Below are positions 23,792 through 29,438 of a stretch of DNA of 64,000 bases, piece by piece. Origin of the DNA: Pseudomonadales bacterium (GTDB taxonomy: Bacteria > Pseudomonadota > Gammaproteobacteria > Pseudomonadales > Azotimanducaceae); the NCBI GenBank assembly GCA_019090385.1, contig JAHRWB010000001.1:10484-74483 (forward strand), in the 5' to 3' direction. The notes beneath the pieces were generated by a model. It searched no databases and was not told where the DNA came from. It worked only from the letters and a program-made list of their open reading frames with translations. Positions within the stretch are counted from its first letter, which is position 1. The number at the start of each line of letters is the position of its first letter. The translations under genes and the position numbers were made by a program.

Positions 23792-23881
23792 TGGTCTCCT
23801 CGCTATGGCTACCCAATCTCTTTTCTGCTCCGGATTTTCCCTGGCCAATACCATGCTAAAACCGGCACAAAACTGATTGTT

Positions 23882-24148
23882 TTACTGTGTTAATAACACC
23901 TTGTCTTCCAATATCGTACTGCCATTGGCCGTCAGTTTAAGGTTGCCGGTCTCGGCCTGATAGTAAACTTCAAGATAGCGATGTTGCTCCCAGTCCAACT
24001 CTACGTTGGTCCACAAGTAGATTTGATCGGCAAACGAACGCTGTTTTCGCAAGCAGCCTTCTACCCACAGGGACAATCCATCACTGAGTGATAAACGCAG
24101 GACAATATCCTTACCCTGAAAATTAATACTTCGTTCTTCAATGCTCAT
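23882..24148 (-). CDS. Hypothetical small protein
   Basis: An 88-92 aa ORF with either the ATG at 24148 or the GTG at 24160 as start. No recognisable motif. It is divergent from the ATP-grasp module. Confidence 0.3.
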   Translation of the reverse strand: MSIEERSINFQGKDIVLRLSLSDGLSLWVEGCLRKQRSFADQIYLWTNVELDWEQHRYLEVYYQAETGNLKLTANGSTILEDKVLLTQ

Positions 24149-24485
24149 TTGTACCACCACTAAATTTTGCTAGCACCCTCATATAAGCTTAAACACACTC
24201 AAACTGGGCCGCTCGCTCTGCACCACCTAAAAGACCACATAAAATGTTACACAAATCATCACAGAAATATATCATTTCACGGCGCGTCTAGTATATCGAC
24301 CTCCATATGCCTAGATTATCAATTTTTCCTTATTTGCCCCATGTTAATAAACTCCTTGTCTACCAATAAGTTACCACCAAGCCACTGCCAACCTGGCTAT
24401 GAGCAAAACGTGGCCAAAACACATAGGTAGGATTGCCATGCGATTCGGCCGCGCTTTGTGTAGAATTCGCCGTTCGCTTTAGGAC

Positions 24486-25310
24486 ATGGGACTGGATTTG
24501 AACGACTCAAAAACAAAAAACAAGGGTTTTTTCACTGGCTTCGTTATTGCCTGCCTGGTGTTTTTCCTGTCTGGCTGCACTGCCGTGCAAATGGAACGCT
24601 CAACAACCCGTGATGCCTTGCAGGCTTTAACCGAGGAAGTAAGTCAGCTAACCCAAACCAATGGCCATACCCAGGAACAGGTTGTTAAGTTGACGGCGGA
24701 ACAATCTGCTGTATCGGGACAATTAAAAACACAAACTTCACAGGTATTGGAACTTCAAAAATCGGTTGCTGAACTACCCCGATCACTCACCGCCCTATGC
24801 CCTAACCCCACCATTGCAACTGCAACCTGTGATAGTGCTGGCTTACGCCGGGTAATCATCAGCGGAGACAAGATGGTGGTAGGTGAACTGGAGCGCGTTT
24901 GGTTGGACCCGCCCGGGCTAAGCCTGACTGCCAGAGTTGATACCGGGGCATTCAGTAATTCGTTAAATGCCGAAGGACTTATCGAATTCGAGCGAGACGG
25001 CGACGACTGGGTCCGATTTTACGTATCTGGCCCAGAGGAAGAATCAAGGGTCCAGATAGAACGGCGAGTTCTCAGGTGGGTAAGAGTATTCCAACAGGCA
25101 GACAGAGAGGGCTCCAGACGCCCGATGGTGAAAATGCGCCTACTGCTGGGCGATGTTGAGGAAAGTTTTGAATTTACCCTGGCCGATAGATCTCACCTGG
25201 AATACCAGATTTTACTGGGACGTAATTTTCTTACCGATATCGCTCTGGTTGACGTGGGTCGACAATTCGTCCAGCCTCCTTATGTGCCTCCAAAAAAGAT
25301 CAAACCATAA
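24486..25310 (+). CDS. Lipoprotein with a coiled-coil linker and a retropepsin-like ('ATP-dependent zinc protease'/RimB-like, DUF785-type) domain
   Basis: The lipobox is FFLSGC, with the Cys at residue 31. A Q/T-rich coiled region follows. The C-terminal domain contains the aspartyl-protease-like signature ARVDTGAFSNSL (DTGA encoded at 24939-24950) and the tail LLGRNFL. Confidence 0.7.
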   Translation: MGLDLNDSKTKNKGFFTGFVIACLVFFLSGCTAVQMERSTTRDALQALTEEVSQLTQTNGHTQEQVVKLTAEQSAVSGQLKTQTSQVLELQKSVAELPRSLTALCPNPTIATATCDSAGLRRVIISGDKMVVGELERVWLDPPGLSLTARVDTGAFSNSLNAEGLIEFERDGDDWVRFYVSGPEEESRVQIERRVLRWVRVFQQADREGSRRPMVKMRLLLGDVEESFEFTLADRSHLEYQILLGRNFLTDIALVDVGRQFVQPPYVPPKKIKP

Positions 25311-25316
25311 AGCCTT

Positions 25317-26831
25317 ATGAATCGCCCCGGCCCACTTCTGCTCTTCGTCACCATACTTCTCATCCTGGGAATTGTCAGCGCACAATTTCGGCACAACACC
25401 TACCAAGTGCCATTTTTACCTGGCGAGCAGCAAACTGTGTGGCAAATTGAAGCCAAGCTTAAATTTTTTGCTGAAGACGGTCCCGTCCAGGCTATCCTGA
25501 CACTACCGCCTGAACAAAGTAATTTTCGCTTCCTTTCAGAAAATACTGCATCATCAGGATATGGCATTAAAATTGATGACATAAGCAGCAACGACAAAAC
25601 ACAGCAGCGGCTAGCGCGTTGGTCAAAACGCACAGCCAGCGGCGCGCAAACCTTGTATTACAAACTGGAAATATCCACCGACGCAGAGCGGCGTGTGGAG
25701 GCTATACCACCCGAAATACCCGGTAAGCCAGTTTGGGATGAGCCCTACCTGACGGCCGCGGCTGATTTGCTGGCCATTGCGTACCCAAAATCTGCAGATT
25801 CACTAACGCTGGCAGAAACACTCACACAATTACTCCACAATAAACCACTGGATCAAAACGCAGCGCTCTTGCTCTCAAAATACTCAGCCCCTGAGTTGCT
25901 GGCCAGACTACTTGCGAATGCACAAGTTGCCGCACGCCACGTAAAGGCGCTGGCGTTGGAAGACGGACGGCGACGACAGTCTTTGACAGACATGTTAGAA
26001 GTCTGGCAAGACGATACTTGGCACCTGCTAGATCCGATTTCCGGCCCAACGGCCAAATCTGAACAATTGTTATTGTGGCAAACAGACTCTCCCTTTTTAC
26101 TTGAGGTCAGCGGTGGTAGCCGTAGTCGCGTTTCCTTTTCGGTTATCAGCCAAACCCGTCCTGCGCTGGAGCTTTCCGCCCAGGAGGTAAATCCTGAAAC
26201 CGCACCGGTATTTTCACTCTACAGCCTGCCAATAGAAGAGCAGAGCATGTTTAAGCTGATCATGTTACTGCCTGTTGGTGCCTTAGTGGTGGTGTTTATG
26301 CGCACCATGATTGGCATCAAAACTTCAGGCACCTTTATGCCAGTACTGATTGCGATGTCTTTTTTGCAAACTAAATTAGTACCTGGGCTAATCAGTTTTC
26401 TGTTGGTTATTTCTGTCGGTCTGATGATCAGAACCTATTTATCACTGCTCAATCTCCTGCTGGTTGCACGCATCGCCGCCCTGGTCATTGTGGTCATCGG
26501 CATCATTTCTCTGGTAAGCGTGGTGAGTTACCGACTGGGATTGATTGGTGGTCTGACCATCACTTTTTTCCCCATGATCATCCTGGCCTGGACGATAGAG
26601 CGCATGGCAATTATCTGGGAAGAAGAGGGGCCAAGAGAAGTTTTTATTCAAGGCGGGGGGAGCTTATTCGTTGCGACCCTGGCTTACCTGCTAATGGATC
26701 AAGCGCTCACACGCCATCTGGCATTTAATTTTCCAGAAATACATTTGTGCATATTGGCACTGATTGTACTGATAGGTCGCTACACGGGTTACCGCCTGTC
26801 CGAGTTATACCGCTTTGCAGACATGAAATGA
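25317..26831 (+). CDS. Membrane protein: N-terminal anchor, periplasmic transglutaminase-like (probably inactive) domain and a C-terminal 7-TM bundle
   Basis: 504 aa. An N-terminal TM segment is followed by a ~280-aa soluble region and then seven hydrophobic helices from MFKLIMLLPVGALVVVF. The block GIKTSGTFMPVLIAMSF is characteristic of the 7TM domain usually fused to inactive transglutaminases. Confidence 0.65.
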   Translation: MNRPGPLLLFVTILLILGIVSAQFRHNTYQVPFLPGEQQTVWQIEAKLKFFAEDGPVQAILTLPPEQSNFRFLSENTASSGYGIKIDDISSNDKTQQRLARWSKRTASGAQTLYYKLEISTDAERRVEAIPPEIPGKPVWDEPYLTAAADLLAIAYPKSADSLTLAETLTQLLHNKPLDQNAALLLSKYSAPELLARLLANAQVAARHVKALALEDGRRRQSLTDMLEVWQDDTWHLLDPISGPTAKSEQLLLWQTDSPFLLEVSGGSRSRVSFSVISQTRPALELSAQEVNPETAPVFSLYSLPIEEQSMFKLIMLLPVGALVVVFMRTMIGIKTSGTFMPVLIAMSFLQTKLVPGLISFLLVISVGLMIRTYLSLLNLLLVARIAALVIVVIGIISLVSVVSYRLGLIGGLTITFFPMIILAWTIERMAIIWEEEGPREVFIQGGGSLFVATLAYLLMDQALTRHLAFNFPEIHLCILALIVLIGRYTGYRLSELYRFADMK

Positions 26832-27814
26832 AATTGCCTCAATGTGCAAATCCCATCAGCCTTAACAAACAAGGCATATTGGGCATGAACCGGAGAAATA
26901 TAGACTACATCAGCTGCTACAATGATCGTCAGCATTTTCCAAATGTAGATGACAAGCTAAAAACCAAGCGAATCGCCCAGCAGGCTGGAGTCAGTGTACC
27001 TGAGCTGATCATGGTTATTCATACCCAGCGCGAGGCTGATTCCATTGCCGAGCAATTAACAGGCATCAATCAATTTGTATTCAAACCGGCTCAGGGCTCT
27101 GGCGGCAAGGGCATATTGATTATCCTCTCCCGAGAAGAGGGTCTTTTTGTAAAAAGTAATGGTGAAAAGCTAAGCATTCACGACCTGGTTCGCCATCTAT
27201 CCAATATCATCAGTGGACTGTATTCCCTGGGTGGTCGAACCGATGTTGCCATCATGGAAACCCTGGTCAACTTTGACCCGGTTTTCAACGATTTAAGCTA
27301 TGAAGGCGTGCCTGATATTCGACTCATCGTTTTCCGGGGATACCCGGTAATGGGCATGTTGCGACTGGCAACCCGTGCCTCAGACGGAAAAGCAAATCTT
27401 CATCAGGGGGCTATAGGCATCGGCCTGGATATGGCCGTTGGAGAGAGTATTGGTGCAGTTCAATACAATCGCCCGATACAGAAACACCCAGACTCAGGCG
27501 CATCACTTTCAGGCATATCCATTCCACACTGGCGCACATTGCTCCTACTGGCAGCACGCTGCTATGAAGCATCCAAACTTGGGTACCTGGGAGCGGATCT
27601 AGTGTTGGACAAAGCCAGAGGACCACTGTTGCTGGAGCTCAACGCTCGACCCGGATTAACTATCCAGGTTGCAAATAAAAGTGGGCTTTTGCCCCGCCTT
27701 AGAAAAATTGAGCAGATAGAAATCCCTGCCAGCGACCCTCAACAGAGAGTCGACTATGCAATCCAGCAGTTTTCAAAACGAGGCAAATCCGCGGACTTAT
27801 TTGCCCAGGACTAG
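26828..27814 (+). CDS. Alpha-L-glutamate ligase-like ATP-grasp enzyme (RimK-related)
   Basis: The ATG at 26828 overlaps the upstream stop as ATGA. The N-terminus LNKQGILGMNRRNIDYISCYNDRQHFPNVDDKLKTKRIAQQAGV is typical of the RimK-related glutamate-ligase-like family. ATP-grasp motifs are FVFKPAQGSGGKGI and GADLVLD...LLLELNARPGL. Confidence 0.8.
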   Translation: MKLPQCANPISLNKQGILGMNRRNIDYISCYNDRQHFPNVDDKLKTKRIAQQAGVSVPELIMVIHTQREADSIAEQLTGINQFVFKPAQGSGGKGILIILSREEGLFVKSNGEKLSIHDLVRHLSNIISGLYSLGGRTDVAIMETLVNFDPVFNDLSYEGVPDIRLIVFRGYPVMGMLRLATRASDGKANLHQGAIGIGLDMAVGESIGAVQYNRPIQKHPDSGASLSGISIPHWRTLLLLAARCYEASKLGYLGADLVLDKARGPLLLELNARPGLTIQVANKSGLLPRLRKIEQIEIPASDPQQRVDYAIQQFSKRGKSADLFAQD

Positions 27815-28458
27815 TCGTCGCCCATTATTCCCAACAAGCTTAATAGATGGATAAATAAGCTATATAGCGCCACATATAAACCTACTGTTGCACTGATATA
27901 GTTTGTTTCTCCACCGTGCACTATCTGGCTTGTCTGAAACAATATTAAAGCACTGGCAAACAGGACCATTCCGCCAGATATAGCCATGCTAAAGGCAGAC
28001 ATATCTATAAAGAGACTCAGTACCACCAAACCAAGAATAATAACCGCACCTGCTATCAGAAAGCCGCTGAGAAAGGAAAAATCCTTACGTGTAATCAAGG
28101 CATAGGCAGAAAGTGCGACGAACACCGCCGCAGTCAAGCCTAAGGATTGAACTATGAGGGCGCTGGATGAATAGTTTAAAATAGGCCCAAGAGTGAAACC
28201 AAGAAACCCAGTTAAAGCAAACACCCAAAATAGACCCCACACGCTATTCTGGGTTTTGGTAACAGCAAATAACAAGCCTATATATATAATCAACATTCCA
28301 AACCCCATAGGCTGGGTATTCATTTGCATAGATACGTAGGCTGTTACCGTGCTCCATACCAGCGTGAGGGACAGCAATAGATAGGTATTACGCAATACGC
28401 CGGCATACAATGCCGAGCTTGCAGATGTTGAGGGATTCAGTGTTCTTGCATCAACCAT
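27811..28458 (-). CDS. BAX inhibitor-1 / YccA family membrane protein
   Basis: 215 aa with seven hydrophobic segments, an N-terminal LRNTYLLLSLTL and a C-terminal LYVALYSLFIHLLSLLG, both typical of the family. Confidence 0.85.
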   Translation of the reverse strand: MVDARTLNPSTSASSALYAGVLRNTYLLLSLTLVWSTVTAYVSMQMNTQPMGFGMLIIYIGLLFAVTKTQNSVWGLFWVFALTGFLGFTLGPILNYSSSALIVQSLGLTAAVFVALSAYALITRKDFSFLSGFLIAGAVIILGLVVLSLFIDMSAFSMAISGGMVLFASALILFQTSQIVHGGETNYISATVGLYVALYSLFIHLLSLLGIMGDD

Positions 28459-28581
28459 ATTGTAACCTACCTGTGATAATCAATTCGAATTTAGTACTTT
28501 AATAATAGTCTATCAAGCATATATAAGGGTATATGTGCCATATTTCAAGCTAAATTGTAAACCATTTTGTGGATATGGGGC

Positions 28582-28998
28582 CTAACTCTCGAGCGGGTAT
28601 AAGGCTTGTATGTCAGCCCTGTGAAAATACTGAAATACAGCCACGGAGGCTATAGTCGCAATAGCCAGGGTAATAACTACACCAGCGCCCTCAGCAACGC
28701 TCAACATGGCCATATTTATCAATAATAACGCACCAAAAAACCAGGTACTGATAAAAGCATAAATGCGCACGGCAACCCAACCTTTAGGGTGGTGCAGGAT
28801 AGCCAGGAGTACCACACCGGCTGCTATAAACGAGCCCATAGCCCCAACATTTGCAGCTAAGCCAACCCCCTGAGAAGACAGGCCCAATTCCGGCCTCAAT
28901 AAGATAAGCGTTATCAAACTCAGCCAAAAACCGAAGGGTCCACGAGATTTCATCCAATACATAAATTGCATTCCTCTCTTATTCACGCTTGTCGTCAA
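28582..28998 (-). CDS. Hypothetical integral membrane protein
   Basis: Four predicted TM helices and no family motif. The start is uncertain: the track ORF begins at a TTG at 28998, and the ATGs at 28971 or 28962 are alternatives. AGAGGA lies 9 nt upstream of 28962. Confidence 0.45.
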   Translation of the reverse strand: MTTSVNKRGMQFMYWMKSRGPFGFWLSLITLILLRPELGLSSQGVGLAANVGAMGSFIAAGVVLLAILHHPKGWVAVRIYAFISTWFFGALLLINMAMLSVAEGAGVVITLAIATIASVAVFQYFHRADIQALYPLES

Positions 28999-29048: not shown

Positions 29049-29438
29049 CTAAAATTTCCCTCTAACCACACCTGTAGTACCCTCGCAGGTCTCCCCGGTA
29101 GTGGCTACTGCCTTTATATCAAGCTTTATCTCATCAACGCCTATATCTTCATCAAGCAGCTTTTGGGACACTAGAAATTCCCGCTGCATGGTAATCGACT
29201 CATCGCTCATTATTTCACAAGCACAAGTAACTTCGTGAGGATCTACATTCAACGCCAGTTTGTCATCAATAATCAGATCATCACCCAGAATATCAACGCT
29301 AACGGTAAAGACTAAAGCTTCGCGAAGATCCACTTTAGAACAATTAAGAGTATAGCCGTAAATAACACGAACTGTTTTGAGCTTTTTATGCTCCTCAGTT
29401 TGCTCCAGAGTAAGCATAAGCCTGCTTAAATTCGCCAT
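29049..29438 (-). CDS. Hypothetical acidic protein
   Basis: 129 aa, D/E-rich, no recognisable motif. It has clean ORF geometry between neighbouring same-strand genes. Confidence 0.4.
   Translation of the reverse strand: MANLSRLMLTLEQTEEHKKLKTVRVIYGYTLNCSKVDLREALVFTVSVDILGDDLIIDDKLALNVDPHEVTCACEIMSDESITMQREFLVSQKLLDEDIGVDEIKLDIKAVATTGETCEGTTGVVRGKF

Follow-up and report, generated by a model that had tools for sequence, protein, structure and literature searches.

A probable rloABC operon with a predicted long lipoprotein form of the RloA protease in an uncultured Pseudomonadales bacterium

The rloABC operon of Pseudomonas aeruginosa PA14, described by Lormand et al. (mBio 2025; PMC12239564), is the closest described counterpart of a three-gene locus that we analysed in a metagenome-assembled genome (MAG) of an uncultured Pseudomonadales bacterium, reading the sequence of a 64-kb stretch of DNA (hereafter the window). 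The RloA proteases of P. aeruginosa are secreted, dimeric and retropepsin-like (crystal structures 9G58 and 9G59), and their in vitro substrate is a run of at least eight consecutive alpha-linked Glu residues, bound in a polyglutamate (polyGlu) channel that includes residues K46, R92, R114 and R137; an intradomain disulfide was reported as conserved in periplasmic RloA orthologues (PMC12239564). A triple rloA1-3 deletion strain fails to grow in salt-free medium, dies under hypo-osmotic stress and is altered in cell shape, beta-lactam sensitivity and biofilm, and deletion of either rloB (PA14_41710) or rloC (PA14_41730) suppresses these defects, an epistatic relationship (PMC12239564). Elsewhere, the Vibrio cholerae orthologues lie within the VxrAB cell-wall-damage regulon (PMC12239564), and in Shewanella vesiculosa disruption of the homologous 'inactive transglutaminase' gene leads to hyper-vesiculation (PMC12096838).

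We conclude with high confidence that the triad in our window is an orthologue of rloABC. It shares with the P. aeruginosa operon the same three families, in the same A-B-C order, on one strand and in a Pseudomonadales host, namely a secreted DTGA protease with the polyGlu-binding Arg/Lys positions, an inactive transglutaminase joined to a seven-transmembrane (7TM) protein, and a cytoplasmic ATP-grasp protein of the TIGR02291/PF14397 type. An initial annotation of this stretch had proposed these domain assignments and forecast the profile matches, which were recovered as PF05618 for gene 1, PF14400 with PF14402 for gene 2, and TIGR02291, above its cut-off, for gene 3, with E-values and scores that chance cannot account for. 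The same annotation regarded the triad as an uncharacterised system, its gene association as known from computational surveys alone, and its substrate and phenotype as undefined, and on these points it has been overtaken. Since rloABC was described in 2025 and NCBIfam already holds RloA, RloA2, RloA3 and RloB models, the triad is not an uncharacterised system, and both a protease substrate and hypo-osmotic, beta-lactam, biofilm and cell-shape phenotypes have been published (PMC12239564).

A genome scan with an RloB alignment recovered 80 related loci at 49-64% identity, drawn from Pseudomonadales MAGs, Candidatus Azotimanducaceae and Marinobacter. RloB is immediately preceded by an RloA homologue in every locus with enough contig (77/77; the other three start too near a contig end) and immediately followed by an RloC homologue in 76 of 76 (the remaining four are cut short). 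No RloBC locus without RloA was found among the 80, contig permitting. Spacing is tight, with A-to-B gaps between -4 and +30 nt in 68/76 loci, and B-to-C gaps of 15 nt or less in all 76, including a 4-nt overlap in 47. In the window, the open reading frame (ORF) list and the raw sequence agree on three same-strand genes, a 6-nt gap between genes 1 and 2 (25311-25316) and an ATGA shared by genes 2 and 3, as the initial annotation had it; its call of a single operon likewise stands, and the three genes appear to form a tight operon in which the ATGA overlap predicts translational coupling of rloB and rloC. No universal flanking gene was seen beyond the triad across the 80 loci, and downstream neighbours vary even among the closest relatives (78-81% identity). 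Judged by this pattern of conservation, the functional unit is the rloABC triad itself.

The product of gene 1 matches PF05618 (E 5e-34), and its protease domain matches the RloA crystal structures 9g58 (E 1.6e-15) and 9g59 (E 1.8e-14). The catalytic Asp152 is retained in the alignment to both of these and to 2pma, within a DTGA signature that the initial annotation had placed correctly, as it had the LSGC lipobox. Counterparts of the polyGlu-binding residues are also kept in the alignment with 9g58, with R150 in the place of K46 and Arg at the positions of R92, R114 and R137. The protein scores below the equivalog cut-offs of all three protease models (RloA3, 95.9 bits against 210; RloA2, 81.6 against 250; RloA, 68.2 against 280), and reaches 62.1 bits with the RimB model NF052261 (cut-off 200).

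The window RloA is about 100 residues longer than the P. aeruginosa type (274 aa compared to the 178 positions of the RloA model), the additional part comprising a lipobox, a heptad-repeat stalk and a Cys pair, all ahead of the protease domain (Table 1). Its signal consists of a Lys-rich n-region (KTKNK) and a hydrophobic h-region followed by LSGC, in which Cys31 is the predicted site of lipidation; Thr rather than Asp occupies position +2, and a lipobox-like motif ending in Cys is also present in the homologues at related loci. The stalk segment is rich in Thr, Gln and Leu, holds its a/d heptad register without a break (L L V L N T V L Q V L Q V L V L L L), and has weak Pfam matches to coiled-coil families only. 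The columns of C105 and C115 are Cys in 74/78 and 75/78 aligned homologues, respectively. Inside the protease domain, by contrast, there is no Cys in the window protein or in any of the 77 homologues at related loci, whereas the published periplasmic RloAs have their intradomain disulfide there. Some gene 1 homologues have been named Lpp or FtsB by the Joint Genome Institute (JGI).

A search with the protease domain that covered 1.84 billion cluster representatives returned 3249 clusters at E <= 0.001. In 121 of the best 150 of these 3249 clusters the domain starts at least 90 residues into the protein, and among the 119 long single-domain representatives drawn from the same best 150, 117 have no Cys in the domain and 94 carry a lipobox by a simple pattern. 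Long-form RloA is thus a widespread and previously undescribed architectural subfamily, and the window protease, which falls short of the equivalog cut-offs and lacks the disulfide, represents a distinct subfamily within PF05618 and within the rlo system. The main text of PMC12239564 makes no mention of lipoprotein or coiled-coil RloA forms, and the 64-kb window contains no second RloA gene, RimB or RimK.

Four relatives from outside the window (P0383, P0386, P0390 and P0397) have a different layout. Each is a lipoprotein, 382-403 aa long, in which the PF05618 domain occurs twice in tandem with DTGA intact in both copies, and we read them as single-chain pseudo-dimers of pepsin architecture that arose inside the bacterial RimB/RloA family.

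Gene 2 contains PF14400 (E 9e-47) and PF14402 (E 1.5e-102), and its product aligns over its full length to the NCBIfam 'osmotic stress tolerance membrane protein RloB', with 296 bits against the cut-off of 900 set for this narrow 'exception' model. An AlphaFold2 (AF2) model built from 108 sequences reached a predicted local distance difference test score (pLDDT) of 84.9; in an earlier model (17 sequences, pLDDT 70) the transmembrane (TM) part was too poor for a fold search. The top Foldseek match of RloB is 3isr (E 8.5e-9), a putative Cys protease of the transglutaminase-like type, and the matching covers the periplasmic domain only. The extracytoplasmic part of RloB is Cys-free, and because the sole Cys of the protein, C478, lies in a TM helix, Cys-His-Asp transglutaminase or protease activity is ruled out. 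Invariant polar residues of the membrane domain include R329, T336-P342, N379, R385 and E428-R429, and further invariant residues are W434-E435-E436-G438, H467, E474 and E496-R499, from which we infer a domain more like a transporter or a catalytic site than an inert anchor. A W-E-E-E-G-P motif, found in 75/80 loci and with W434, E435, E436 and G438 invariant across the 108 sequences, caps a helical hairpin in the AF2 model. The positive-inside rule favours seven TM helices with the C-terminus inside; by the same rule the WEE(E)GP tip would be cytoplasmic, where it could provide a dock for RloC.

One further sequence, a 717-aa RloA-RloB fusion (P0044), was considered as a 'Rosetta stone' for the association of the two proteins and rejected. 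Its N-terminus is truncated, it has DTTA in place of DTGA, and the fusion would place the protease on the wrong side of the first TM helix of RloB; it is most likely a read-through, a mis-call or an assembly artefact.

Gene 3 belongs to TIGR02291, 'alpha-L-glutamate ligase-like protein' (443.8 bits, cut-off 314.2), and to PF14397 (E 3e-92), a Pfam family named 'Sugar-transfer associated ATP-grasp'. It keeps the K/G-rich loop and the E-x-N motif of ATP-grasp enzymes and has no TM segment; the product is accordingly predicted to be cytoplasmic. Similarity to the RimK structures 5zct and 4iwx is weak (phmmer E 2e-4) and takes in the GxD...ELNxxPG Mg/ATP motif, and the protein scores far below the cut-offs of both the RimK family TIGR00768 (50.5 bits against 143.4) and the S6--L-glutamate ligase equivalog NF007764 (16.1 against 331).

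The proteins of all three genes are identical to MBV1904463-5 of a 'Pseudomonadales bacterium' MAG. NCBI calls the protease MBV1904463.1 a 'RimK/LysX family protein', which is the name of the ligase partner, and UniRef and NCBI mislabel several Marinobacter RloB homologues 'gonadoliberin III'. These two names are annotation errors, and as a result the rlo system is hidden.

Table 1. Positions of the rlo genes, of the features within them and of neighbouring genes, in window coordinates; residue numbers refer to the product of the gene concerned.
Feature	Position	Strand	Residues	Description or basis
Gene 1, rloA-like	24486-25310	+	274 aa	Lipoprotein, retropepsin-like aspartic peptidase
Gene 2, rloB-like	25317-26831	+	504 aa	
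Gene 3, rloC-like	26828-27814	+	328 aa	From the ATG inside ATGA at 26828-26831
ATGA overlap	26828-26831	+		rloB stop TGA (26829-26831) and rloC ATG (26828-26830); sequence
Invariant 13-mer TTGTGTAGAATTC	24456-24468	+		-10-like hexamer TAGAAT at 24461-24466; candidate promoter/operator of the operon
RloA type II (lipoprotein) signal peptide	24486-24578	+	lipobox 28-31	Lipobox LSGC at 24567-24578; judged from sequence
RloA coiled-coil stalk, predicted	24609-24779	+	~42-98	~57 residues; heptad scan
RloA Cys pair	24798-24830	+	C105, C115	Just upstream of the protease domain; candidate disulfide
RloA retropepsin-like protease domain	24876-25277	+	131-264	Pfam match
RloA catalytic DTGA	24939-24950	+	152-155	Sequence
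RloB N-terminal TM anchor			6-24	
RloB extracytoplasmic beta-sandwich and inactive transglutaminase-like domain			~25-300	
RloB beta-sandwich			38-121	AF2 model
RloB alpha/beta core			144-282	AF2 model
RloB polytopic '7TM' domain			~306-490	Membrane-helix bundle; AF2 model
RloB W-E-E-E-G-P motif	26616-26633	+	434-439	Tip of helical hairpin H417-437/H439-460 (AF2)
ORF divergent from rloA	23882-24160	-	92 aa	
YccA/BI-1-like gene	27811-28458	-		PF01027
ORF	28582-28998	-	138 aa	
ORF	29049-29438	-	129 aa	

We postulate that RloC builds alpha-linked oligo- or polyglutamate in the cytoplasm at the expense of ATP, either free or on an acceptor, that RloB, translationally coupled to RloC, would move or present this chain at the periplasmic face of the inner membrane, and that the tethered RloA would trim it in the periplasm, the untrimmed RloBC product being harmful to the envelope. 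In such a scheme the coiled-coil stalk would dimerise RloA, which is an obligate dimer, and set the distance of the protease from its anchoring membrane. That RloBC make what RloA must remove is the simplest explanation of the suppression of the rloA1-3 defects by loss of rloB or rloC. On the sequence side, the catalytic Asp, the polyGlu-binding counterparts, the ATP-grasp motifs of RloC and the Cys-free extracytoplasmic domain of RloB all count for the mechanism, and we list the hyper-vesiculation in Shewanella as a related phenotype. The initial annotation had already envisaged that a Glu-type ligase acts in the cytoplasm and that the 7TM protein and a protease in the periplasm deal with what it makes, and this idea remains the best fit to the published genetics. 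We regard the make-export-trim order from RloC through RloB to RloA as evenly poised between right and wrong, and we lean modestly towards the joint reading of the locus as rloABC working by this mechanism.

Several points weigh against the scheme. No organism has yielded an identified RloC product, and no periplasm has been found to contain polyglutamate; Lormand et al. leave the choice between a polyglutamylated protein and free polyGlu (PMC12239564), and in the literature covered we found no follow-up paper naming the RloC product. The words 'sugar-transfer associated' in the Pfam name of RloC hint at a non-peptide acceptor. The membrane domain of RloB has no PDB match by Foldseek and can be assigned neither a transporter nor an enzyme fold, so that its role in transport is a guess. 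The specificity of the window RloA could differ from that of its P. aeruginosa counterparts, given the 96 bits against 210 and the missing intradomain disulfide. Lastly, the organism is known only as a MAG, and the locus was read from sequence alone.

Under the default rule of lipoprotein sorting, Thr at +2 in the absence of Asp leads to anchoring in the outer membrane, which would be the location of the window RloA, and a parallel coiled coil would be expected to pre-dimerise the protease. A coil of ~57 residues measures ~8 nm. Taken together, this would allow a more daring picture, which we consider unlikely as a whole, of an Lpp-like outer-membrane RloA whose coil spans the periplasm to reach the dead transglutaminase domain of RloB, such that RloC, RloB and RloA would form one continuous trans-envelope machine making, exporting and length-trimming poly-alpha-glutamate. 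If true, it would amount to a pathway for alpha-polyglutamate in a Gram-negative bacterium that does without the ribosome and acts on the mechanics of the envelope.

The published phenotypes also bring in a different kind of substrate. Changes in cell shape, in beta-lactam sensitivity and in hypo-osmotic lysis all point to peptidoglycan in P. aeruginosa, the V. cholerae orthologues have their place in a cell-wall-damage regulon (PMC12239564), the Shewanella mutant hyper-vesiculates (PMC12096838), and the Pfam family of RloC is named for sugar transfer. These observations would suit the modification of an envelope precursor, whereby RloC adds amino acids to a lipid- or sugar-linked precursor, or else to a protein of the membrane or the periplasm, RloB serves as flippase or scaffold, and RloA removes the modification and so controls cell-wall synthesis. 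We hold this to be possible but rather unlikely, as no glycosyltransferase or cell-wall gene is conserved beside the triad in the 80 loci, and the run of at least eight Glu that RloA requires in vitro (PMC12239564) is borne by no known envelope precursor. It also overlaps with the make-export-trim scheme, whose acceptor stays open.

RloB could instead be a sensor. An enzymatically dead domain of ligand-binding type, fused to a polytopic membrane domain with an invariant acidic hairpin tip as a possible docking site for RloC, is what a 7TM receptor might look like if it bound a periplasmic peptide and controlled RloC, with RloA making or destroying the ligand and the output being cytoplasmic glutamylation, as by RimK on S6; in the Rim system, partner proteins do control RimK activity. 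This we consider decidedly unlikely. Loss of RloB or RloC cures the loss of RloA, for which a toxic product is a simpler fit than a signalling chain, and the surroundings of the 80 loci hold no conserved gene for a response regulator, a kinase or a DNA-binding protein; a weaker point is that the predicted translational coupling of rloB and rloC fits a stoichiometric complex better than a relay. Finally, a cytoplasmic ribosome modification of the RimABK type, in which the ligase would extend ribosomal protein S6 with polyGlu tails and the protease would trim them, can draw on the homology of the two enzymes to RimB and RimK, but it is highly improbable in view of the lipoprotein signal peptide of gene 1, the RimK-family and S6-ligase scores of gene 3, the membrane protein gene between protease and ligase in every locus, and the lack of a genetic interaction of P. 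aeruginosa rimB with rloA (PMC12239564).

Some details of the gene boundaries and control regions remain to be given. For gene 1, an alternative TTG start at 24498 is the choice of NCBI and gives 270 aa; four close relatives keep both this TTG and an ATG/GTG at 24486. The frame of gene 3 is open upstream as far as a GTG at 26747, but we prefer the ATG at 26828 because the TIGR02291 alignment begins at residue 11 of its product and because the 4-nt overlap recurs in 47/76 related loci. Upstream of rloA, TTGTGTAGAATTC is the sole long invariant block shared by the window and four relatives (L081, L083, L084 and L085); it stands 18 nt ahead of the rloA start codon (ATG), the rest of the intergenic DNA being divergent among the five loci, and could serve as a promoter or as a site for a regulator. 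A generic sigma-70 scan did not call TTGTGTAGAATTC. In a generic promoter and terminator scan of 23800-28600, sites were no commoner than in shuffled sequence, and no terminator was found after rloC. Neither an Rfam scan nor a tRNA scan gave a match anywhere in the window.

The neighbouring genes of the window (SmrA, aldehyde dehydrogenase, orf92, the YccA/BI-1-like gene and others) were considered as partners of the triad and rejected, as they are not kept beside it beyond close relatives. The 92-aa ORF, which has no Pfam or NCBIfam match, has homologues upstream of rloA in 43/80 loci, at variable distance, an association that probably reflects synteny rather than function. The YccA/BI-1-like gene scores 181 bits with the FtsH-modulator YccA model, below its cut-off of 353, and adjoins the triad in only 5/80 loci; in the window it converges on rloC, the stops overlapping by 4 nt and no terminator-like site separating the two genes. 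Two ORFs without Pfam or NCBIfam match follow (138 and 129 aa; Table 1), and their counterparts, of 127 and 129 aa, are kept beside the BI-1-like gene in L081. Two other genes recur at related loci and are absent from the window, one being a same-strand ORF of ~100 aa found ~28 nt after rloC in 30/76 loci (by eye, antibiotic-biosynthesis-monooxygenase-like), the other a divergent gene of ~378 aa situated ~140 nt upstream of rloA in 44 loci.

Finding rloABC in a gammaproteobacterium will be no surprise to a specialist, and the locus adds nothing categorically new, save for the architecture of its protease. What our analysis does provide is an extension of the rlo system, with gene order fully kept, into uncultured marine and sediment Pseudomonadales and Marinobacter. 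Most of the nearest relatives of this Rlo protease are predicted to lack the published disulfide and to be lipoproteins carried on a coiled-coil stalk, which calls for caution in generalising from the P. aeruginosa structures. The long lipoprotein form would also constrain the periplasmic position of the RloA substrate, and the sequence features described above sharpen the questions of the RloC product and of the role of the RloB membrane domain.

Comparison with other systems places the triad further. In RimABK/RimBK (Pseudomonas fluorescens; E. coli RimK), too, an alpha-L-glutamate ligase of the ATP-grasp type is found together with a retropepsin-like PF05618 endopeptidase that cuts polyGlu. 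However, RimBK is entirely cytoplasmic, without a membrane partner and with a RimB that has no signal peptide, whereas the window triad has both a membrane partner and a lipoprotein signal. RloC is moreover only a distant relative of RimK, as was also seen in P. aeruginosa, where the two share 24% identity (PMC12239564). On these sequence features the window locus is not a RimBK system.

In the poly-gamma-glutamate system of Bacillus (PgsBCA/CapBCA), glutamate is polymerised at the membrane by an ATP-dependent enzyme, the polymer is exported, and the dedicated extracytoplasmic hydrolases CapD and PgdS cut it. This system serves as a working analogy for rlo only, with no homology. PgsB is of the Mur-ligase type, not ATP-grasp, and makes a gamma rather than an alpha linkage, and the CapD and PgdS hydrolases are of the gamma-glutamyltransferase or NlpC/P60 types, not aspartic proteases; polymer export belongs to Pgs/Cap, whereas for Rlo it is only proposed. 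The N-terminal part of the window RloA, with its lipobox followed by a heptad repeat close in length to that of Braun's lipoprotein, invites a second comparison, and two homologues of the window protein carry the JGI label 'Lpp'. Unlike Lpp, the window RloA has no significant Pfam LPP match and no C-terminal Lys for murein attachment, and its coil bears an enzyme domain.

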